A DNA stretch of 7,523 nt from a virus (Duplodnaviria; Heunggongvirae; Uroviricota; Caudoviricetes): positions 1 through 7,523 of the IMG/VR virus record IMGVR_UViG_2579779076_000001; one strand, 5' to 3'. The translations under genes were made by a program, and so were the position numbers. Below are positions 1 to 7,523 of the stretch, one piece after another (position 1 is the first letter of the stretch; the number at the start of each line of letters is the position of its first letter). The notes beneath the pieces were generated by a model, which worked only from the letters and a program-made list of their open reading frames with translations, did no database searches and was not told the DNA's origin.

Positions 1-119
1 TCGGTTCCGGCTCCACCAGCACCCTGCCGCAATGAAAAACAGGCCGTGATTCGCGTCCAGGCTTAAGGACCACCAGGCCAAGTTCCGGCACCAGAACAGG
101 TCGAAGTAATACCCGCACG

Positions 120-392
120 TTACCTCCAGATACGTTGCTGGAATGTGCGGGACGGACGCGGTGGATGTTCGGAATAAGGGAGCCTGACAGAGATTATCCA
201 GTGACGATAATCGAGGCTGATGGCTTTCTTAACCTCGTATCCGCGCCTGCGGTAACACTGAATCAGCCATTCGGCCTGTTCTTCAGTGCATGGGGGATGC
301 TGGTACCAGTCGGTTTTAAATACGTGCGAATGCCGCCCCCGCTTAATGGCCGGGACGGCTTCAGAATTGTGGGATTTTATACGTTGCGCCAT
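120..392 (-). CDS. hypothetical phage protein, basic, about 90 aa
   Basis: ORF-track ORF 120..410 begins with GTG; in-frame ATG at 392..390 has GGAGAA about 6 nt upstream; TAA stop at 120-122. No family recognised. An opposite-strand ORF (135..407) in the same triplet phase lacks any RBS and was not preferred. Confidence 0.5.
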   Translation of the reverse strand: MAQRIKSHNSEAVPAIKRGRHSHVFKTDWYQHPPCTEEQAEWLIQCYRRRGYEVKKAISLDYRHWIISVRLPYSEHPPRPSRTFQQRIWR

Positions 393-442
393 CGGGTTCT
401 CCGGTGACACAGCAGGTGCCAGTTGTTCAGGCCGGCGTGCGA

Positions 443-472
443 ATTGTAAACCAGAATGCCAGGAAAAAACAA
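443..472 (-). promoter_or_regulatory. candidate sigma70 promoter for the 90-aa gene (-35 TTGTTT, about 18-nt spacer, -10 TACAAT on minus strand)
   Basis: Minus-strand TACAAT at 448..443 with weak -35 about 18 nt upstream, immediately after the hok terminator T-run; leader of about 45 nt to the ATG at 392. Confidence 0.3.
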
Positions 473-490
473 AACCCGCAGAAGCGGGTT
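463..490 (-). terminator. rho-independent terminator at the 3' end of the hok mRNA
   Basis: Minus-strand hairpin AACCCGC-UUCU-GCGGGUU (plus 473-490) followed directly by UUUGUUUUUU (plus 463-472). Confidence 0.65.
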
Positions 491-558
491 AAGTGCGGGT
501 GCATTGAGGATGCCTGACACATCAGAGGTGGCGAGGGATTTCTCCCTCGCCGGGTCTC

Positions 559-714
559 TTACTTCTCAGATTCGTAAGCTGTGAAGACAGCGACCTCCGT
601 CTGGCCGGTTCGGATTCGTACCTCGCAGAGGTCTTTCCTCGTTACCAGTACCGTTACAACGACGGTAATACAGATGACGATCAGGGCGATTAGCATCGCC
701 TTTTGCTGCTTCAT
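559..714 (-). CDS. hok: Hok/Gef-family type I toxin (51 aa, single-TM membrane peptide)
   Basis: Translation MKQQKAMLIALIVICITVVVTVLVTRKDLCEVRIRTGQTEVAVFTAYESEK matches the Hok/Gef/RelF family almost residue for residue (recalled). ATG at 714..712 with AAGGAG about 9 nt upstream; TAA stop at 559-561. Confidence 0.9.
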   Translation of the reverse strand: MKQQKAMLIALIVICITVVVTVLVTRKDLCEVRIRTGQTEVAVFTAYESEK

Positions 715-771
715 AGCCTGCTGCTCCTTGCCTTTCGGCGCATAAGAGGCTAATCTAAGTGTGCAAGTCAT
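559..771 (-). CDS. mok: mok-like in-frame upstream reading frame (70 codons) overlapping hok
   Basis: ATG at 771..769 in frame with hok adds 19 N-terminal codons; TGAGG lies about 11 nt upstream. In-frame Mok extensions are known for chromosomal hok loci (MokC/HokC, recalled). Confidence 0.55.
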   Translation of the reverse strand: MTCTLRLASYAPKGKEQQAMKQQKAMLIALIVICITVVVTVLVTRKDLCEVRIRTGQTEVAVFTAYESEK

Positions 772-836
772 AGATATGGCCTCAGATTAATGTTAAGCGT
801 CCTGCAAGACGCATAATGTTAACTGGGGCTTTTCTC
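763..836 (+). ncRNA. sok: candidate Sok-like antisense RNA overlapping the mok start and hok leader
   Basis: Plus-strand -35 TTGCCT (728-733), 17-nt spacer, -10 TAATCT (751-756), start about 763; possible 3' stem 779-785/823-829 followed by TTTTCTCT (830-837). Position and size fit the hok/sok paradigm; ends are approximate. Confidence 0.35.
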
Positions 837-883
837 TGTCTGCCTTACGTCGGCATGCCCGAGGCAGACAGCCTCAAGCACCC

Positions 884-918
884 GCAGCAATTCTACTTAA
901 CTCTTCTTTCCCCGCAAA
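884..918 (-). promoter_or_regulatory. candidate hok mRNA promoter (-35 TTGCGG, -10 TAGAAT on minus strand), start about 883
   Basis: Minus-strand TAGAAT at 895..890 with TTGCGG about 16 nt upstream. The predicted 5' end GGGUGCUUGAGGCUGUCUGCC resembles the hok tac element, and an about 418-nt transcript to the terminator matches hok mRNA size. Confidence 0.4.
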
Positions 919-924
919 CCGTTT

Positions 925-1008
925 TTATCCCCAGCGGCAAATCGAATACACCACCAGCGCCACCGCCATTGCAATTCCTACCGTTATGAACGCTTCAGGC
1001 CAGGTCAT
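925..1008 (-). CDS. 27-aa hydrophobic micro-protein (MTWPEAFITVGIAMAVALVVYSICRWG), candidate small membrane peptide
   Basis: Below the ORF-track size cut-off. ATG at 1008..1006 overlaps the upstream TGA (ATGA); GAGGAG about 10 nt upstream; TAA stop at 925-927. One predicted TM helix. Confidence 0.3.
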   Translation of the reverse strand: MTWPEAFITVGIAMAVALVVYSICRWG

Positions 1009-1520
1009 CGTAAAATATTCTCCTCGTTTATCAGTCCGTTTCGCTTCAGGTAGTCCATCGCCTTATCCGGTAATTTGCAGTCCGGCTTCGCTTTTTTCAG
1101 TTGGCTGACCAGCCGTTTAACCCACATTGCTAATTCGCTAACCTGATTGCCGGATGCTGGTGGATTGTCGGCTTTACCCAGAATGGCAGCACAGCAGGCC
1201 TCTCTGAGCACCCAGTCAACAGCATCCTTCCATGCTCCTGTTTCGACTGGCGGATTCTCACGCTTTACCTGTTCATAAAAGCGCACAGCTTTAACCAGTC
1301 CTTCTGATGTCACCGGGACTGGCGGGCCGATGAATAAGGCCTGAATTTCATAGTTCGGCCTGTCGTTACAATCCTCTTTTGTCGGTACATATTTCCAGTC
1401 ACCAGCCCACGGCTTCCCCTGAAAGTCTGTAACGTCTTTTTTCACGTAGCGATATCGCCATGCAACTGGTTTTGCCTGCCCTGCCGTTTCATGCCCTTCC
1501 TGATAATTAATCTCGCTCAT
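1005..1520 (-). CDS. hypothetical phage protein, 171 aa
   Basis: ATG at 1520..1518 overlaps the stop of the upstream 58-aa ORF (ATGA); TGA stop at 1005-1007. Trp-rich N-terminal half; no family recognised. Confidence 0.7.
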   Translation of the reverse strand: MSEINYQEGHETAGQAKPVAWRYRYVKKDVTDFQGKPWAGDWKYVPTKEDCNDRPNYEIQALFIGPPVPVTSEGLVKAVRFYEQVKRENPPVETGAWKDAVDWVLREACCAAILGKADNPPASGNQVSELAMWVKRLVSQLKKAKPDCKLPDKAMDYLKRNGLINEENILR

Positions 1521-1693
1521 TCATCGCCCCACTCATCACAATATGCTTCGACCGGAGTTTTTCCTACTTCATAATCATCACGCCATGCTTCAGCATCAGC
1601 AGCACTGCCACCACGTAACTCTGCATAGTCCATTAACAGTTCATGCCATTCTTCAAAACTGACGTTGTATTTAGTTGAACCAAAATCAGCCAT
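1517..1693 (-). CDS. small acidic protein, 58 aa (MADFGSTKYNVSFEEWHELLMDYAELRGGSAADAEAWRDDYEVGKTPVEAYCDEWGDE)
   Basis: Not in the ORF track (under 60 aa). ATG at 1693..1691 with GAGGAAG about 8 nt upstream; start overlaps the upstream stop (ATGGCTGA) and its TGA overlaps the next ATG (ATGA). Confidence 0.5.
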   Translation of the reverse strand: MADFGSTKYNVSFEEWHELLMDYAELRGGSAADAEAWRDDYEVGKTPVEAYCDEWGDE

Positions 1694-1868
1694 TTTGTTC
1701 TTCCTCTTCGTCTTTTATTTCGTGATATGAGTAATTGCAGTAGTTAAAGAAAATTTCTTTTGCTTCGTTATGAATTTCATCAGGCGTCGCATCATCATTC
1801 ACTTCGAATTCATCCTCGAAATCTCCACCGGCGATTCCCGTTTCAATAATTATTTTGAACTTTCGCAT
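1686..1868 (-). CDS. small acidic protein, 60 aa, in an AT-rich island
   Basis: True ATG at 1868..1866; strongly acidic C-terminus (DEEEEQNG); visibly AT-rich compared with flanks; preceded by a 147-nt AT-rich intergenic region containing GC hairpins. Weak SD. Confidence 0.5.
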   Translation of the reverse strand: MRKFKIIIETGIAGGDFEDEFEVNDDATPDEIHNEAKEIFFNYCNYSYHEIKDEEEEQNG

Positions 1869-2015
1869 TTCACTACCGCCCTGCCGGGCGGTCTCCTGAT
1901 GTTCTGAGGGTGCAGGAATCCCTCCGGTTAAGGATTAAATTTTATTTACAGTGCTGATTTTAATTATTCAGTTCTGGATTATGCTTTCTCTTTCACCTGC
2001 CGTAGTTCCTGGTAA

Positions 2016-2321
2016 TTAATTTCGCTCACTGGTTGCCTCCTGGAAAATAACTGCATGCCCCAGTTTCTCCGCCAGTGCCAGCTCTGCCTTAGCGCCTGCC
2101 GACCGCTGCCAGCCTTCCAGCATATAAACCGCATCCACACAACGAATCATTGCCATGCAAATATCCATGTAATGTGGCTGAGTCAGCCCGTCCGGAAGTA
2201 CTGCGGGATTTAATACGGTATGCCCTTCCTGTTTCAGTGCTTCTTCCGCCTTGTGAAACGCCTCACGGTTGAAATTTTCATATCCCGTCATCGGACCGGC
2301 GATATAAATTCTCACCCTCAC
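2016..2321 (-). CDS. DUF4406 / nucleoside 2-deoxyribosyltransferase-like protein, 101 aa
   Basis: N-terminal R-I-Y-I-A-G-P-M-T-G motif, then F-N-x-x-A-F and V-L-N-P, typical of the NDT-like Rossmann fold (recalled). GTG start at 2321..2319 overlaps the upstream TGA (GTGA) with AGGAGG about 8 nt upstream; TAA stop at 2016-2018. Confidence 0.75.
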   Translation of the reverse strand: MRVRIYIAGPMTGYENFNREAFHKAEEALKQEGHTVLNPAVLPDGLTQPHYMDICMAMIRCVDAVYMLEGWQRSAGAKAELALAEKLGHAVIFQEATSERN

Positions 2322-2599
2322 GCCTGAACCCTCCTGTCGAAATAAACGTAGTTATTCACTGCGCCCAACTTCATCCCAAACTTTTCGGCAATTTCCCGTC
2401 GGGGTACGCCACGCTGATGCAGTTGCCGCGCCAGCTCAATATCACGCTGTGAACATTTGGCTGACTGGTGATAATCACCCCGTAACATCATGCAGATACC
2501 CAGTTCCCGCGCTTTCGTCCTGACGGCAGCCCCACTACGGCCAATCAGACTGCCGATGCTTTCGACTGTCATCGTTCCCGCACACTGCCGGAGTATCAT
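2318..2599 (-). CDS. small DNA-binding protein with two predicted helix-turn-helix motifs
   Basis: ORF-track start (GTG at 2722) lies inside the upstream gene. First ATG after the upstream stop is at 2599..2597; alternatives are GTG 2635 (GTGA overlap with upstream stop) and ATG 2572. HTH-like segments VESIGSLIGRSGAAVRTKAREL and RREIAEKFGMKLGAVNNYV. Start uncertain. Confidence 0.55.
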   Translation of the reverse strand: MILRQCAGTMTVESIGSLIGRSGAAVRTKARELGICMMLRGDYHQSAKCSQRDIELARQLHQRGVPRREIAEKFGMKLGAVNNYVYFDRRVQA

Positions 2600-2631
2600 A
2601 ATTTCCGCCCAGCGCCACTTCTTCCAGCCAC

Positions 2632-3348
2632 TCACCGCAGCAGCTCTCTGGTGGCGGTAATATCCCGGAGAATATCCCTGTGTTTGTTCAGTTCCCGCAG
2701 CGCGGCGCAGACACGCTCCCACTTCTGAACCTGACCTTTTGCCCGGCGCAGCTCGCGGTTAGCCACATGCAGCGATGGTAGAATCAGGTCATCTGCTTTC
2801 GTTTCGGTGACCGATGGCTGTAACTTCACAATGTCTTCCACGATTTCTGTTTTCATTTCTTCCTGTGTCGTCGTTTCCCGGACTGGTAACGCAACACCTG
2901 CTGGCTGAGGAAAGGCTTTACCATCGGTTTCCGCTACGGATGCAGCTTCCGGCTCTGCCGGTAAATCAGCGCCCGGTATGCAGTAACGAAATTTACCGCC
3001 CTGATTTACGCGAATCAGACGCCCTTTGCTGATTGCCATGGCCAGCGATGAATTCGCCCGGCGGGAGGTAATCCCGAACATAAGTGCCAGCTCATCCGCC
3101 GTTTGTGGGCCATGTTGTTCAATCGCCTCAGTCAGCATTTGCGCTGTCACTTTCGGTACCGGTGACACTGGTTCACTTTCACCTGCCTGAGTCAGCCACC
3201 ACATCGACCCCTTGTTATCCGCTTCACCACGGCGCTTCAGTTTCCACAGTTCGTTGACCGCATCTTCACGGCTGATTCCAAGGCGGGCCGCCACTACCTG
3301 TGAAGAGGCTCTTTTCAGTGCTTTCAGTGCGTCAAATACGGTTTCCAT
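2632..3348 (-). CDS. phage protein with tandem winged-helix domains and a C-terminal coiled-coil-like tail, 238 aa
   Basis: ORF-track start is TTG (3366); ATG at 3348..3346 has GGAGGAAA 7-8 nt upstream. Two internally similar wHTH-like segments (residues about 5-55 and 70-130) with shared GxKFRY-like ends; helical charged C-terminus. TGA stop at 2632-2634. Confidence 0.7.
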
Positions 3349-3381
3349 TAAAATTTCCTCCGACAAAATCGTTTCCCAGAT

Positions 3382-3843
3382 TCAAATAAAACCAGCAGCC
3401 TTCCGGCGTTCGTATTCCTGTTTCAGCCGTTCAATTGGCGTTGGCCCTTTCGGGTGTTTCGCCCCTTCCAGTTGTCGTCGCACTGGCGGAACACTCATCC
3501 CGTTACCAACATGCTTTGCCCATTTCGTCAGTTGCCGTTCCGCAAGTCGTTTTAACTCACCCTGCGTCATCTGGCGCTCAATCCCTCTGGTACGCATTTC
3601 GAGGCAGATGTGGTACAGCACAGGCTGTGGCCACGGGTATTTATCACTCCCGTCGTATCGCCAGGATTCATTGCGCCAGCGCCGGTACTCTTCCATCACG
3701 GCATCCACCGTAAGACCAAATGGATTTGCCCCACTCTCCGAAATCAGCGCAACAAACTCAGCCAGGTCCGGGGGCCACGTTTCACCCGCCCGGCAGCGGT
3801 CCATGCACTGACGGCAGACCAGACGGATTTGCTGTTCAGTCAT
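3382..3843 (-). CDS. lambda P-like replication protein (DnaB helicase loader)
   Basis: C-terminal two-thirds aligns by eye with lambda P (PPDLAEFVALISE versus PSPGQFVAWCREE; YPWPQPVLYH versus YPWKSNAHYW, recalled). Start chosen at ATG 3843..3841, overlapping the O-like stop (ATGACTGA). ORF is open up to ATG 4044, which has a good SD, so a longer 220-aa form is possible. Confidence 0.7.
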   Translation of the reverse strand: MTEQQIRLVCRQCMDRCRAGETWPPDLAEFVALISESGANPFGLTVDAVMEEYRRWRNESWRYDGSDKYPWPQPVLYHICLEMRTRGIERQMTQGELKRLAERQLTKWAKHVGNGMSVPPVRRQLEGAKHPKGPTPIERLKQEYERRKAAGFI

Positions 3844-4867
3844 CGCACCAATCTGGGCAATCCAGAGCTTCGAAGGTGCGGCCCCGTTCTTCTGAGTCCA
3901 GCGGTTCGAATACACCTCCCCCATAAGCTCCCACAGCTTCCAGGCCATTTCCGTTGCTGATAAATCCGTTGTCACGTTCCCACTGTTCGCGTGCTGCCCG
4001 GATTTCCTGAACTGCCCGTGATGCCGTGCCACCTGATGCTGCATGGCTTACCCCCTTGCTGACTGGTTTTACCTGTGCCCTGACGTGCTGCACGTGACGG
4101 GCAAATTTCTGCTCCCACTGAACCTGCGTGAAAACCTTCCCCTCCGCCATCCAGTAATCCCGGAATGCGGCAAGCTCAGCAGGTGTAAATTCCGGCTCAG
4201 GCAGAGCCATACCCCACACTGCTGCCCGTTGTCGAAAATCCGGCGACGGCTGCCAGACAGTAGTCATCGAAAATTTCCCGATGGGTTCGCTCAGGCCGTC
4301 CAGGTATTCAGGTTCGGCTGTCTGCAACGGCGCACCATTCGACTCACTGGTCGGAATACTCTCGCGCGCGTTATGTGTGGGGTTTAATTCTGTATCTGTA
4401 TCTTTATCTGTCGTGACTTGTCGTGACAGATGCGTGACACGTCGTGACTCATCGTGACAATCAGCATTATGTTTCCGCAGCTTTTCCCGCTCCCGCTGCG
4501 CTCTCTTACGCTCTGCCGGGGATTTTGCCGTTTGCGAAACGTTACCATTGTCCTCTTTCAGCACCTGACGTTTTTCCCATCCGGAAATAAGGTCACCATC
4601 CAGAACCCGCCCCTGCATTGCATGCAAAATTGAATCAATTACGTCTTCCGTCACATCAAGCGCACTTGCTAAATCTTCCGTCGTGACATCAATGTGACCA
4701 CGTAGTGACACGCCGTGACATGTCGTGACATTTCGTGACGCGCTCACCAGAAGGTGGATATACACTGCCATCACTGTTGCGATTGGCTGTCCTGATACCC
4801 TGGCAATCGTTCGCCACTTGGGGTCATTTGGCATGTCATGCCACAATCTGAGCCAGGCATTAGCCAT
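3836..4867 (-). CDS. O-like replication initiator / replisome organizer (N-terminal DNA-binding domain, DnaT-like C-terminal region)
   Basis: ORF-track start is GTG (4873); ATG at 4867..4865 has GAGGTG 3-4 nt upstream. Sits directly upstream of and coupled to the P-like gene and carries internal iteron arrays. Family assignment (DUF1376/DnaT-like) is from recall. Confidence 0.75.
   Translation of the reverse strand: MANAWLRLWHDMPNDPKWRTIARVSGQPIATVMAVYIHLLVSASRNVTTCHGVSLRGHIDVTTEDLASALDVTEDVIDSILHAMQGRVLDGDLISGWEKRQVLKEDNGNVSQTAKSPAERKRAQREREKLRKHNADCHDESRRVTHLSRQVTTDKDTDTELNPTHNARESIPTSESNGAPLQTAEPEYLDGLSEPIGKFSMTTVWQPSPDFRQRAAVWGMALPEPEFTPAELAAFRDYWMAEGKVFTQVQWEQKFARHVQHVRAQVKPVSKGVSHAASGGTASRAVQEIRAAREQWERDNGFISNGNGLEAVGAYGGGVFEPLDSEERGRTFEALDCPDWCDD
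4386..4458. repeat. iteron array 1: AT-rich direct repeats followed by five CGTGAC-core repeats at about 10.5-bp spacing (candidate origin)
   Basis: GTGAC at 4413, 4423, 4434, 4444, 4454 (spacings 10, 11, 10, 10), preceded by AT-rich ctgtatctgtatctttatctg (4390-4410). Lies in the linker-coding part of the O-like gene, as lambda ori does in O. Confidence 0.6.
4650..4739. repeat. iteron array 2: six GTGAC-core repeats at helical spacing plus one inverted GTCAC
   Basis: GTGAC at 4683, 4694, 4705, 4715, 4725, 4735 (spacings 11, 11, 10, 10, 10); inverted GTCAC at 4650-4654. Inside the N-terminal coding part of the O-like gene. Confidence 0.55.
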
Positions 4868-4935
4868 ACTCACCTCTTCTGATACCGAACTTTACCCACG
4901 AACTTCCGGAAGAAATCCGGTATAAATATTGTTGG

Positions 4936-5361
4936 TCAATGCACAACAACTGCATTACCAGGCTGACCACCACTGTTAGTCAGGGTGCCCCAGGCGATCG
5001 CTACAGCGACAAAATCATCCACATCTTTCACCAGCCGATCCCGTCGTTCGACGATCTCCCGGTAATATTCAGAACTGTGACTGCGCATACGGGCCACCAG
5101 CAAAGGCGGCATCGCCTTTTCGATCGCCGGTAACAGAGCCTGCATTTTTTCAACAGCATCAGGGGTGTCTTTATCCAGCCAACGGAAAATTTTCTGGGTA
5201 TTACGGGCCAGGGCTTCCGGATGGCTGTCGTCGTACAGTTCAGGGAACGTCATCCCCAGTTCGAAATAAGTCCGGGCTATTTCAGCTGCGGGAACTTTCT
5301 CACCGTCAGGATATGCCCAGGCATTCATCGCCATGCGGATGTGCTCATGCTTGATTTTCAT
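4936..5361 (-). CDS. ydaT: YdaT-family protein at the cII position of the immunity region
   Basis: N-terminus MKIKHEHI and length of about 141 aa match my recollection of YdaT proteins. ATG at 5361..5359 overlaps the Cro-like stop (ATGA) with GAGGAA about 8 nt upstream; TGA stop at 4936-4938. Confidence 0.65.
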   Translation of the reverse strand: MKIKHEHIRMAMNAWAYPDGEKVPAAEIARTYFELGMTFPELYDDSHPEALARNTQKIFRWLDKDTPDAVEKMQALLPAIEKAMPPLLVARMRSHSSEYYREIVERRDRLVKDVDDFVAVAIAWGTLTNSGGQPGNAVVVH

Positions 5362-5573
5362 GAATCATTCCTCATTTCGTGCGAGGTGTTATTCTTCTTT
5401 TTGTACAGCTCTGGGTTGTATTTCAATTCACCACCAGTAATTTCATCCAACTCAATTGCTCGAAGTTTTGGAATAACAGATTTCCACCGAACAACAGCCA
5501 CGTGTGAAATTCCCAGAGCCTCTGCTACTAGCCGCTTTTTTTTGAAATAGCGTAGGACATCATCTTTAAACAT
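5358..5573 (-). CDS. Cro-like / YdaS-like small HTH regulator, 71 aa
   Basis: ORF-track start is TTG (5609), inside the operator region. ATG at 5573..5571 has GGGGGAA 4-5 nt upstream. HTH segment LVAEALGISHVAVVRW; divergent from the CI-like gene across palindromic operators. Confidence 0.7.
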   Translation of the reverse strand: MFKDDVLRYFKKKRLVAEALGISHVAVVRWKSVIPKLRAIELDEITGGELKYNPELYKKKNNTSHEMRNDS

Positions 5574-5599
5574 AAATTCCCCCTGTAAAACCGAACCTA

Positions 5600-5664
5600 A
5601 AGGTAACAATAGTTACATGATAATGTCAACCATAGTGACATCCATTGGTAGTAACATTGGTTAC
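5600..5664. promoter_or_regulatory. OR-like operator region with leftward PR-like promoter
   Basis: Palindromes GTAACAATAGTTAC (5603-5616), TGTCAACCATAGTGACA (5624-5640) and GTAACATTGGTTAC (5651-5664) at about 23-25-bp centre spacing. Minus-strand -35 TTGACA (5629..5624), 18-nt spacer, -10 TACCTT (5605..5600), overlapped by the first operator. Confidence 0.55.
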
Positions 5665-6339
5665 ATGAACACTACTATTAGCGAACGCATCCGAAAGCGT
5701 CGAAGAGACATAGGTCTAACCCAACAGCAGGTTGCAAAGGCTATCGGCGTCACCCGTGTATCCGTAACAAAGTGGGAAAATGGTTCAACAAAACCGGACG
5801 GTGAGAATTTACATCTGCTGTCAAAACTGTTTTCCAAATCACCTGAATGGATTCTTTATGGGAAAGATATTCACGATCAAGTCGATGATTTGCGATTGAA
5901 TCAACTCCCCTACCTTAGTGACAACATCACCCGGTTGCCCGTTTTAACGTGGGAACAGGCTGGTTACTGGGATATGAGCTACCCAGTAACCGAAATCCCT
6001 GGTATTAAGAATTGGGTTGATGTCATGACAAAAACATCTGAAAACTCTTTTTTATTGCGCGTTGAGGGAGATTCAATGACAAACTCTAACGGTTTGCCAA
6101 CGATCCCCGACGGCTCCACGGTGTTGATCACTCCATGCTCTGGCAACATTGGGGAGATGGCGGGAAAGATTGTTCTAATCCAACTAGAAGGAATACCAAC
6201 TGTAACACTGAAAAAAGTCGCAATTGATGGCCCAAACATCTACCTACTGTCATTAAATCCGCTTTACAAGCCTATAGAACTCAATGGTCGCTACACCATT
6301 AAAGGTAAAGTCTCACAAATCCATCAATACTTAGATTGA
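5665..6339 (+). CDS. CI-like repressor: XRE-type HTH N-terminal domain plus S24 (LexA-like) autopeptidase C-terminal domain
   Basis: HTH segment LTQQQVAKAIGVTRVSVTKWENG; C-terminal domain with GDSM (Ser) and KK (Lys) dyad context. ORF-track ATG at 5617 would place two operators inside the coding region, so ATG 5665, abutting the third operator, is preferred (leaderless-like, as lambda cI from PRM). Alternative start 5617. TGA stop at 6337-6339. Confidence 0.8.
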   Translation: MNTTISERIRKRRRDIGLTQQQVAKAIGVTRVSVTKWENGSTKPDGENLHLLSKLFSKSPEWILYGKDIHDQVDDLRLNQLPYLSDNITRLPVLTWEQAGYWDMSYPVTEIPGIKNWVDVMTKTSENSFLLRVEGDSMTNSNGLPTIPDGSTVLITPCSGNIGEMAGKIVLIQLEGIPTVTLKKVAIDGPNIYLLSLNPLYKPIELNGRYTIKGKVSQIHQYLD

Positions 6340-6345
6340 CCAAAA

Positions 6346-6368
6346 GCCCGCATATATTGCGGGTTTTT
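6346..6368 (+). terminator. rho-independent terminator after the repressor gene
   Basis: Stem 6347-6352 / 6358-6363 (CCCGCA / TGCGGG) with 5-nt loop, followed by TTTTT (6364-6368), 7 nt after the stop codon. Confidence 0.7.
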
Positions 6369-6381
6369 CACACGCCTTTAT

Positions 6382-6429
6382 GTAACTTATAGAACACGCA
6401 TTGACTCAACGAGTAACTTCTGTTACCTT
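6382..6429 (+). promoter_or_regulatory. OL/PL-like operator-promoter for rightward early transcription
   Basis: Perfect operator GTAACTTCTGTTAC (6413-6426) and degenerate GTAACTTATAGAAC (6382-6395). -35 TTGACT (6401-6406), 17-nt spacer, -10 TACCTT (6424-6429): the same -35 / operator / -10 layout and identical -10 hexamer as the PR-like promoter. Confidence 0.5.
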
Positions 6430-6605
6430 CATTGCGTACCCACCCCGTCCCACAGAACGCCGGGCAATACTTCGAGTTACCCGGCAGTGGTCAGGGGTTA
6501 AGTAGCCAGCCCGAGGCGTATGAACATGACGGCGGGAACACTTTGTATAACAGCGCAGCAGGTTTTTAGTTCCGCTACCCGGCGTTAAGGGGAAATGAGG
6601 TCAAC

Positions 6606-6758
6606 ATGGATACGCTCAATCTTGGCAACAACGAATCTCTGGTATGCGGCGTGTTTCCCAACCAGGACGGCACGTTTACCGCGATGACGTATACCAGAAG
6701 CAAAACGTTTAAAACTGAAGCTGGCGCGCGTCGCTGGTTAACCAGAAACACTGACTGA
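6606..6758 (+). CDS. small protein, 50 aa (MDTLNLGNNESLVCGVFPNQDGTFTAMTYTRSKTFKTEAGARRWLTRNTD), possibly YdaF-like
   Basis: Not in the ORF track. ATG at 6606 with GAGGT about 5 nt upstream; TGA stop at 6756-6758 overlaps the next ATG (TGATG). Resemblance to Rac YdaF-type small proteins is a weak recollection. Confidence 0.5.
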   Translation: MDTLNLGNNESLVCGVFPNQDGTFTAMTYTRSKTFKTEAGARRWLTRNTD

Positions 6759-6769
6759 TGAGGTTGACG

Positions 6770-7144
6770 ATGGAATTTAAAGATTTACCACTACCATTCC
6801 AGGAAATGGCTGCGAATATAGTTCGTTCTCAACTGGCCACTCTTGACCTGAGTACCGTAGAAAAAGAAACCATCGATAATATATCCGGTAACGTACGCCG
6901 AGCCTTTATCGGGCTGTACGAAGAGAAGCAGCTCTCTGATAACCAGGATTTACATGAAAAATACTTTCTGGAATTAATGGACATCATTAATAAAGGATTT
7001 GGCTTGTTAATGAAAAAGAAAGGGATTCGAATAGCTCCCCTTGAAAATCATTTTACAGCAAGCAGTATTAACTCCTGTGATTTAAAGCATCACACATCCG
7101 ATGGGAAAGTTGAATCAAACAACAAAATATCAATTAATCATTAA
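6770..7144 (+). CDS. hypothetical AT-rich cargo protein, 124 aa, first sizeable gene of the PL-like operon
   Basis: ORF-track start 6758 (ATG) has no SD; ATG 6770 has GAGGT 6-7 nt upstream. Visibly AT-rich, Lys/Asn/Ser-rich C-terminal half; no TM segment; no family recognised. TAA stop at 7142-7144. Confidence 0.65.
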   Translation: MEFKDLPLPFQEMAANIVRSQLATLDLSTVEKETIDNISGNVRRAFIGLYEEKQLSDNQDLHEKYFLELMDIINKGFGLLMKKKGIRIAPLENHFTASSINSCDLKHHTSDGKVESNNKISINH

Positions 7145-7455
7145 TTTATTCACGGGTGAGGTAGAGCGCGTGCGCCGGACACGGATAAGAATCCGGCACT
7201 GACAGTTTACTGAAAGAACATATCCCTGAAAAGTCAGGGCATAACACGAAAGCGCACGGCGAGAATATAAGGCTTGTCGTTAAATTTAATTCGATCGTGC
7301 GCTTCCGGTTGTGGCAATCCGCGAAATGGCGCGGCGGTAAGTATGGCTGGGGCTTCCTCCATTGCTCCAGAAAATGCACCGGGTTGTCAGGTTGACCATG
7401 CGCCTGAGTGACAACACCGCCACAACAACCTCTGTTATCACTTTTCTGGTGATTC

Positions 7456-7481
7456 GGCGGAAATGGATATCCGCCATTTTT
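7456..7481 (+). terminator. candidate rho-independent terminator (plus strand)
   Basis: Stem GGCGGA (7456-7461) / TCCGCC (7470-7475) with 8-nt loop, followed by ATTTTT (7476-7481). No convincing upstream CDS in 7145-7455, so the transcript it ends is unclear. Confidence 0.45.
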
Positions 7482-7523
7482 AAAGTGTATTTTGTGATGC
7501 GGTGAATGCGGCTAAGCGCACGC

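Follow-up and report, generated by a model that had tools for sequence, protein, structure and literature searches.

A predicted hok/mok/sok type I toxin-antitoxin locus of the hokD/hokW lineage in an Stx2c prophage of Escherichia coli keeps both alternative partners of the tac element

The hok/sok system is the paradigm of type I toxin-antitoxin (TA) systems, and its workings are known from the hok/mok/sok (parB) locus of plasmid R1 and, in part, from the hokW-sokW locus of Shiga toxin (Stx) phages: a stable toxin mRNA is combined with an unstable antitoxin RNA, the duplex of the two is cleaved by RNase III, and cells are killed upon loss of Sok (PMC9841398; PMC8621323). In R1, refolding of the mRNA after truncation has been established experimentally, and the role of the 3' stem-loop is known from mutagenesis (PMC9841398). 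For hokW-sokW, Takada et al. (2021; PMC8621323) report that HokW is toxic, that sokW neutralises HokW from its own promoter with RNase III and Hfq contributing, and that the locus is active from its native prophage position; upon exposure to mitomycin C, sokW disappears and HokW appears in the inner membrane in a RecA-dependent manner, and deletion of hokW-sokW delays growth arrest and halves phage release at induction. Hok is present in almost 80% of Enterobacteriaceae genomes, is four-fold enriched in prophages and occurs in approximately 9% of Escherichia phages, according to a recent survey (bioRxiv 10.1101/2025.08.07.668861). Here we describe a locus of this family at 466..883 on the minus strand of a 7,523-nucleotide (nt) stretch of viral DNA, hereafter the window (IMG/VR record IMGVR_UViG_2579779076_000001, positions 1 to 7,523).

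The region very probably represents an intact hok/mok/sok type I TA locus of the hokD/hokW lineage with a control of the R1 kind. Over a stretch that begins ahead of the promoter and ends shortly after the 3' element fbi, it shares approximately 89% DNA identity with hokW/mokW/sokW of 933W and Sakai Sp5 (AF125520), a demonstrated type I TA system, and it is thus of an already known kind, which the initial annotation correctly recognised. The completeness claimed there was confirmed, as a HOK_GEF toxin, an in-frame mok with its GAGG, a match to RF01794, the long-range pairings, a 3' stem-loop, a terminator and a Sok gene were all found, and the view that the locus appears intact rather than decayed is well supported.

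The toxin gene hok lies at 559..714 (minus strand), where the listing of open reading frames (ORFs) gives a product of 51 amino acids that matches the full-length Pfam profile PF01848 (HOK_GEF; E = 3.9e-23, 81.2 bits against a cut-off of 22). The protein is RefSeq WP_000813246.1 ('Hok/Gef family protein'), and its relatives at 88-98% identity bear the names Hok or HokD. A mok ORF of 70 amino acids (559..771, minus strand) encloses hok in frame, a layout equal to that of mokW in AF125520. The mok Shine-Dalgarno (SD) sequence GAGG (780..783, minus strand), located 8 nt ahead of the mok ATG, is invariant in the 76 loci aligned below, and AAGGAG at 724..729 (minus strand) was read from the sequence as the SD of hok. 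The full-length hok mRNA is predicted to comprise approximately 418 nt (466..883, minus strand), with a 5' end placed by the start of the RF01794 model and by register with 933W and R1, and a 3' end placed by an intrinsic terminator (466..490, minus strand). This terminator was returned by a terminator scan, as expected from the initial annotation, and consists of a stem at 490..473 followed by a T tract (tail TTGTTTTTTC).

The two ends of this mRNA are complementary. The 5' element tac (translational activator; GGGTGCTTGAGG = GGGUGCUUGAGG; 883..872, minus strand) corresponds to fbi (fold-back inhibition; CCTCAATGCACCC = CCUCAAUGCACCC; 509..497, minus strand), which begins 49 nt past the hok stop codon. 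The reverse complement of fbi equals tac save for one extra T (U381 of the mRNA, bulged at 503), giving 12 bp and one bulge between elements 375 nt apart, exactly the complementarity between 872-883 and 497-509 with one bulged nucleotide and a distance of about 375 nt that had been noticed initially. When the full-length mRNA (883..466, 418 nt) was folded, the minimum free energy (MFE) structure (-173.5 kcal/mol, z = -7.65) held the exact 12-bp tac/fbi helix with U381 bulged, at ensemble pair probabilities of 0.9-1.0, together with a pairing of the leader element ucb to the mok SD. Binding of the tac 13-mer to the 93-nt 3' untranslated region (UTR) was predicted at -21.5 kcal/mol, compared to a mean of -14.2 kcal/mol for dinucleotide shuffles, 8 of 3000 of which were as strong. 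On both strands of the 7.5-kb window, with the antisense of tac itself excluded, only two unrelated sites equal fbi in binding this 13-mer.

Between the hok stop codon (561..559) and fbi, a stem-loop of 9 bp was read from the sequence at 551..530 (minus strand; GGCGAGGGA-GAAA-TCCCTCGCC). The 9-bp hairpin at 530-551 had been recognised initially and is present with a GAAA loop; it starts 7 nt past the stop codon and not 8, which was the only slip of that annotation. By analogy with R1, the stem-loop would likely stop 3' trimming and protect the truncated mRNA.

To compare the locus with its relatives, the DNA pattern AGCCTCTTA-N11-GCAAGGAG was scanned over genome contigs with one genome per species, yielding 120 stretches. 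Requiring a Hok-like ORF and removing chance hits (Bradyrhizobium, Pedobacter and others) gave 89 distinct hok loci from Escherichia, Shigella, Photorhabdus, Erwinia, Pantoea, Serratia, Enterobacter, Citrobacter, Klebsiella and others. A recognisable tac was present in 86 of the 89, which were used for a duplex-based comparison, and 76 distinct mRNAs were aligned from tac through fbi with MAFFT; 48 columns of this alignment are invariant, all of which the window by definition shares. Of the 86 loci, which come from Escherichia, Photorhabdus, Erwinia, Serratia, Pantoea and other genera, 82 have their best tac partner in the 3' flank at 35-65 nt past the stop codon. In 4 of the 86, including R1, RNAduplex chose a bipartite or distant site over the known fbi, and the fbi of R1 was located by eye.

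Variants of tac match the fbi of their own locus (GGGUGCUCUGGAU with GAUCCAUGAGCACCC, GGGCGCCUGAGGC with GCCUUCAGGCGCCC and GGGUGCUUAGGGC with GCCUUAAGCACCC), and duplexes between own partners have a mean of -22.3 kcal/mol versus -17.7 kcal/mol between cross-partners. The pair formed by the fourth tac nucleotide and fbi is U-A in 42, C-G in 30 and U-G in 3 of the 76 aligned mRNAs, and in the duplex-based table most positions show at least two standard pair types, for example U-A 28 and C-G 24; G-C 31, A-U 13 and U-A 4; or G-C 30 and A-U 15. Pairs 7-12 of tac/fbi look poorly paired in the alignment because MAFFT puts the 5' half of fbi out of register between loci with and without the bulge, and for these pairs the duplex-based table is the better count. 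Taken over the whole closed structure, 89.6% of cells are paired in the 76 mRNAs, compared to 38-56% when the partners are slid. Likewise, the 3' stem-loop has 91% of cells paired across the 76 loci, with double changes in seven of its nine pairs. The conservation of the tac/fbi pairing that the initial annotation had asserted is thereby borne out, both in position and by compensatory changes, across 76-86 hok loci.

Tandem arrays of three to five hok loci at a spacing of approximately 500-1000 bp were seen in three members of this sample (L006, L027 and L063; Photorhabdus and Dryocola), and in the Photorhabdus arrays several hok copies are truncated after '...GNTEPL'.

While fbi is the partner of tac in the full-length mRNA, a second partner is found in the leader. 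The Rfam model RF01794 ('sok') matches 883..709 on the strand of the hok mRNA over the full model (1-157), with 113.3 bits against a gathering threshold of 59, and this covariance-model check, proposed initially, supports the hok mRNA fold. The consensus structure of RF01794 is that of an open leader: tac pairs with ucb, the Sok-terminator hairpin is represented by its sense-strand counterpart, and the mok SD and dcb form a target hairpin. Since it is the hok-mRNA strand that matches, and since the consensus is the open leader fold, RF01794 models the hok leader rather than Sok itself; its name 'sok antitoxin' is misleading for strand-specific annotation. The MFE structure of the leader only (1-140) is the open form and reproduces this consensus. 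The element ucb (anti-SD AAGCCCC; 825..831, minus strand) is the partner of the mok SD in the full-length MFE structure, with probabilities of 0.98-0.99 for pairs 55-57/103-105 and 59-60/100-101 in the full-length ensemble, and it pairs with tac in both the Rfam consensus and the fold of the leader alone. In the open fold shown by these two structures, the partner of the mok SD region is dcb (GCCUC; 746..750, minus strand). Across the family, the pair of the seventh tac nucleotide with ucb is U-A in 67 and C-G in 8 cases, a pair flanking ucb/SD covaries (G-C 49, A-U 26), and the open structure has 82.3% of cells paired versus 45-55% when slid (76 loci). Hence, tac covaries with two mutually exclusive partners, which is the signature of the R1 switch. 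In addition, the first 30 nt of the mRNA are predicted to fold into a 5' hairpin (855..883, minus strand; -18.8 kcal/mol) in which GUGCUUGAGGC is paired to GCCUCGGGCAU and tac is sequestered, and which matches the metastable 5' structure described for R1 (PMC9841398).

Opposite the start of mok, a Sok antisense RNA of 71 nt is predicted at 763..833 (plus strand) by register with the misc_RNA sokW of AF125520, a length explained by a Sok-terminator hairpin in the leader that is 16 nt longer than in R1. The stretch 764-834, one base off Sok, is predicted at -27.6 kcal/mol (z -5.1) to form a long hairpin that follows a single-stranded 5' tail of 14 nt and ends in a U tract. Sok is complementary to ucb, the mok SD and the mok AUG, and its first eight nt pair with the 5' half of the 13-nt loop in the predicted target hairpin. 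Its putative promoter (728..756, plus strand) was read from the sequence as -35 TTGCCT (728-733), a 17-bp spacer and -10 TAATCT (751-756). It is a weak match, and the assignment is supported by homology to sokW and by conservation in the family, not by consensus strength: the -10 is homologous to the sokW -10 region targeted in a promoter-less sokW mutant that loses antitoxin activity (PMC8621323), and all 86 loci have a hexamer of the form TAnnnT here, most commonly TAATCT, although the search pattern had fixed the first of its bases and only the remainder lay outside that pattern. The antisense promoter for a Sok-like RNA over the mok start that had been noted initially thus stands as far as these elements and their homology to sokW are concerned, while a generic promoter scan did not call it.

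Sok is identical to sokW at 58 of 71 positions. The differences concentrate in the single-stranded 5' tail (763-779, plus strand), which is only about half identical to that of sokW (1680-1696 of locus L002), the rest being nearly identical; because this tail is the recognition sequence, cross-regulation between the two Sok types is doubtful, and divergent tails may keep co-resident hok/sok copies from cross-regulating one another.

On the minus strand, the hok promoter is predicted from a -10 TAGAAT (890..895, minus strand) that agrees with the consensus in 5/6 positions and lies 6 nt ahead of tac (G883). A weak -35 candidate, TTTGCG (3/6; 913..918, minus strand), is located 17 bp upstream of it and scored under the scan threshold. 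A TAnnAT-like hexamer is found 6-8 nt upstream of tac in nearly all listed family members.

From these elements, the following mechanism can be proposed, which at the molecular level we regard as very probable. A weak promoter would give rise to the ~418-nt mRNA, the nascent 5' end of which would first fold into the local hairpin that hides tac. In the completed transcript, the first 12 nt (tac) would pair with fbi near the 3' end, and in this closed form ucb would cover the mok SD, so that ribosomes and Sok both should be denied access. As inferred from R1 and hokW, slow 3' exonucleolytic trimming to the stem-loop at 551..530 would remove fbi, and the 5' end would then refold to tac/ucb, the open form predicted for the leader alone, with the mok SD and start in the target hairpin, thus enabling translation of mok and, coupled to it, of hok. 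In analogy to the same two systems, the abundant but unstable 71-nt Sok with its single-stranded 5' tail, encoded opposite the mok start, would bind the refolded mRNA and direct it to decay by RNase III, and when Sok synthesis stops, stored hok mRNA would be translated into the 51-amino-acid peptide, which would damage the inner membrane. Loss of the prophage or a shut-off of transcription would act like induction. Most likely, judged from hokW-sokW, the trigger here would be the loss of Sok at prophage induction, with Hok hastening growth arrest and lysis. The initial annotation had gone further in proposing a functional post-segregational killing (PSK) or abortive infection module rather than a remnant; the intactness is upheld, but a PSK or abortive infection function is more than the sequence can show. 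Addiction, phage exclusion and help with the phage's own lysis are candidate roles, and the only direct data on the nearest relative favour the last of these.

Several observations weigh against control and function as in R1. A generic sigma-70 scan of 350-1050 called no promoter on either strand, and both promoters are therefore placed by homology. Conservation of the stretch comprising the Sok promoter and the hok SD is in part circular because the search pattern lay inside it, and as AAGGAG belonged to that pattern, the conservation of the hok SD is not independent evidence. Several conserved pairs (mok SD/dcb and most of ucb/SD) are invariant and, since they never vary, give no covariation support. 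Forcing tac/ucb in the full-length RNA costs 10.1 kcal/mol, and without fbi the cost of the open form drops to 0.3 kcal/mol for an mRNA ending at 512 and to 5.2 kcal/mol for one ending at 528. Even so, the ensemble of the truncated mRNA favours the closed leader, with a tac/ucb probability of 0.22 (end at 512) or at most 0.03 (end at 528), and because the closed leader remains favoured after truncation, the refolding step rests on homology with R1. Finally, the chromosomal hokA, hokB and hokC loci gave no PSK when tested, as summarised in a preprint (bioRxiv 10.1101/2025.08.07.668861).

Among the other explanations, a main role in classical addiction, by PSK of cells that lose the prophage, or in the exclusion of other phages appears rather unlikely, if still the strongest of them. 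Segregational loss of an integrated prophage is rare compared to plasmid loss, and this counts against an addiction role. Such a role would suit the approximately four-fold enrichment of hok genes in prophages, the stabilisation of plasmids through PSK by the hok/sok system of R1, and the lower plating of T4 seen with a high-copy clone of that system (PMC8621323; bioRxiv 10.1101/2025.08.07.668861). However, PSK is not among the assays reported for hokW-sokW in the sections of PMC8621323 used here, and the phenotype described there is a faster growth arrest and a two-fold higher number of phages released at induction.

We consider it unlikely, and less probable than an addiction or exclusion role, that the locus is intact in sequence yet physiologically silent like chromosomal hokA, hokB and hokC, being repressed to such a degree that it would neither kill upon loss of the element nor react to a halt in transcription, and persisting only by travelling with the phage. 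The closed fold is predicted to be very stable and the open fold is thermodynamically unfavoured even after truncation, and Tyr47 of Hok (UAC followed by G) may need A-to-I editing to provide a second cysteine, an editing that reaches approximately 6% in hokD (PMC12214031). On the other hand, the nearest studied relative, hokW-sokW, is active at its native prophage site (PMC8621323), all regulatory elements are kept in the window, including both covarying partners of tac, and the window locus carries no insertion sequence or rearrangement of the kind that inactivated loci in K-12 (cf. PMC12214031).

A still more speculative proposal, which we put forward as improbable, concerns the link between induction and Sok. 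Because the module sits co-directionally inside the early rightward operon, transcription from the derepressed early promoter would hit the Sok promoter head-on and read through hok; induction might then silence Sok by transcriptional interference, setting Hok free, while the terminator of hok might also serve as a nin-type terminator ahead of the genes preceding stx2, and editing of Tyr47 to Cys by TadA could be a further gate. If true, this would account for the way in which sokW is lost in Sp5, a RecA-dependent loss that has been reported but not explained, and the wiring would differ from that of 933W, whose module runs convergently with late genes.

A chance origin of the tac/fbi complementarity, or a decay of the locus to a remnant, is most improbable. 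In its favour one may invoke the two unrelated window sites that bind the tac 13-mer as well as fbi and the weak match of both promoters, but it is already refuted as far as sequence analysis allows by the finding that only 8 of 3000 3'UTR shuffles reach the observed energy, by the conserved position and compensatory changes across 76-86 loci, by the intact ORFs and by the high Rfam score.

Codon 47 of Hok (573-576, minus strand) is UAC followed by G and lies in the loop of a small predicted hairpin (CUUACGAAU), resembling the A-to-I-edited Tyr codon sites of hokC, hokD and hokE. There, the homologous Tyr codon is edited from A to inosine, giving Cys, in 9% (hokC), 6% (hokD) and 40% (hokE), reportedly by TadA (PMC12214031). 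The family alignment has at codon 47 either UAC inside a conserved UACGAA or a genomic Cys codon (UGC/UGU).

The hok 3'UTR also resembles isrK (RF01394), an Hfq-binding small RNA of Salmonella Gifsy-1, but an identity with it was rejected. The match (469-550, minus strand) spans exactly the 3'UTR and scored 29.2 bits (E = 2e-4), below the gathering threshold of 50, aligning well only at the two hairpins. The IsrK paper makes no mention of hok and places isrK downstream of antQ in Gifsy-1, and Gifsy-1 is not among the matches listed by blastn of the hok 3'UTR against phages. The resemblance is probably a generic hairpin-plus-terminator likeness.

All 7523 nt of the window are 100% identical to positions 3314990-3322512 (reverse strand) of NZ_CM144250.1 from E. 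coli ECA64, a dairy isolate. The surroundings form a lambdoid Stx2c prophage of 47 kb that is integrated beside yccA and apparently complete, in agreement with the prophage embedding suggested initially, and that carries an integrase, a LexA-type repressor, a Cro-like protein, YdaT, DnaT-like and P replication proteins, RusA, tRNA genes, stx2c A and B, lysis genes, and head and tail genes. The hok locus is flanked by replication and ea22-like genes and by genes for a GIY-YIG protein, DUF968 and RusA; it has the orientation of the early rightward genes, with the DUF968, RusA and DUF1133 genes downstream, ahead of stx2. At this locus of ECA64, RefSeq lists only a 156-nt 'Hok/Gef family protein' coding sequence (CDS), leaving mok and the RNA genes unannotated.

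A 521-nt query covering the locus was matched in 4738 of 5426 genomes of an E. coli collection, with 70 records at least 95% identical and, among the matches listed, four records at 100%, ECA64 being represented by two accessions. The locus is 100% identical in several genomes of Shiga toxin-producing E. coli (STEC), P15-385 and JNE170426 being examples of lysogens with the identical locus, and the same module was found in the nin-like region of other coliphages. The ECA64 genome itself has three places resembling the hok locus. A hok locus 92% identical to that of the window over 490 nt is present in PP818812.1, recorded as Actinobacillus pleuropneumoniae phage vB_Apl-pPE4; such a locus would not be expected in a phage of Pasteurellaceae, and the host may have been mis-assigned or the record contaminated.

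In the immunity region (4936-5361, minus strand; 5358-5609, minus strand; 5617-6339, plus strand), a LexA/S24-type repressor gene is divergent from a Cro-like gene, and an ORF of the YdaT 'toxin' family occupies the place of cII (Pfam YdaT_toxin, E = 2.6e-10). In place of the LexA-type repressor, racR is found in closely related Stx2c prophages; the immunity module is mosaic. Ahead of hok, a hydrophobic ORF of 27 codons (925-1008, minus strand; MTWPEAFITVGIAMAVALVVYSICRWG), which RefSeq leaves unannotated in ECA64, has its ATG overlapping the stop codon of an upstream 171-amino-acid ORF (ATGA) and its own stop 30 nt ahead of the hok -10. As 933W has a counterpart of 27 amino acids (MTWPEAFANVGTVMAVVLVVYSICRWR) preceding hokW, this ORF travels with the hok module.

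With hok/sok being the paradigm type I TA system and the hokW allele of Stx phages already characterised, the discovery value of the locus is small. Its main value is for annotation, as RefSeq marks the hok CDS alone and omits mok, Sok and the RNA elements. In STEC, the presence of an intact Hok module within an Stx2c prophage may have a slight effect on the timing of lysis and on the release of toxin or phage at induction, comparable to that of hokW in Sp5.

The hokD (relF)-type loci of E. coli and Shigella chromosomes, located in a Qin-type prophage, belong to the same clade as the window locus. In one HokD-type locus (L041), the protein is identical to the window Hok at 46 of 51 positions, and tac, the position of fbi and the 132-nt leader are the same. 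K-12 hokD is reported to be without components of the canonical system as a result of genomic rearrangement (PMC12214031), whereas the window has all parts.

The closest relative by DNA is hokW of 933W, and like the window locus it resides in an Stx-converting lambdoid prophage. Its tac is the same, and its fbi differs only in the bulged base, which is C in 933W and U in the window. The two loci share their layout, with a Mok of 70 and a Hok of 51 amino acids, HokW being identical to the window Hok at 46 of 51 positions, and with a Sok of 71 nt in register; against RF01794, 933W hokW scores 113.5 bits and the window 113.3 bits, compared to 87.2 bits for an R1-type plasmid locus. The differences from hokW are thus allele-level in the locus itself, while position and orientation differ: the window module is co-directional within the early operon, and that of 933W lies past the large late-region gene L0134 and is convergent. 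Moreover, the window has a terminator directly after fbi, and 933W has none there, the similarity ending just past fbi.

Compared to hok/mok/sok of plasmid R1, the window locus is borne by a prophage instead of a plasmid, and the R1 Hok is only approximately 44% identical (a figure given for HokW in PMC8621323). Nevertheless, tac, ucb, the mok SD, dcb, fbi and the 3' stem-loop of R1 all have counterparts in the window at matching positions, as do the metastable 5' hairpin, the Sok promoter inside the leader and the in-frame mok of 70 codons. The tac elements begin GGGUGC in the window and GGCGC in R1, and the two versions of tac and fbi are linked by a compensatory change from U-A to C-G.

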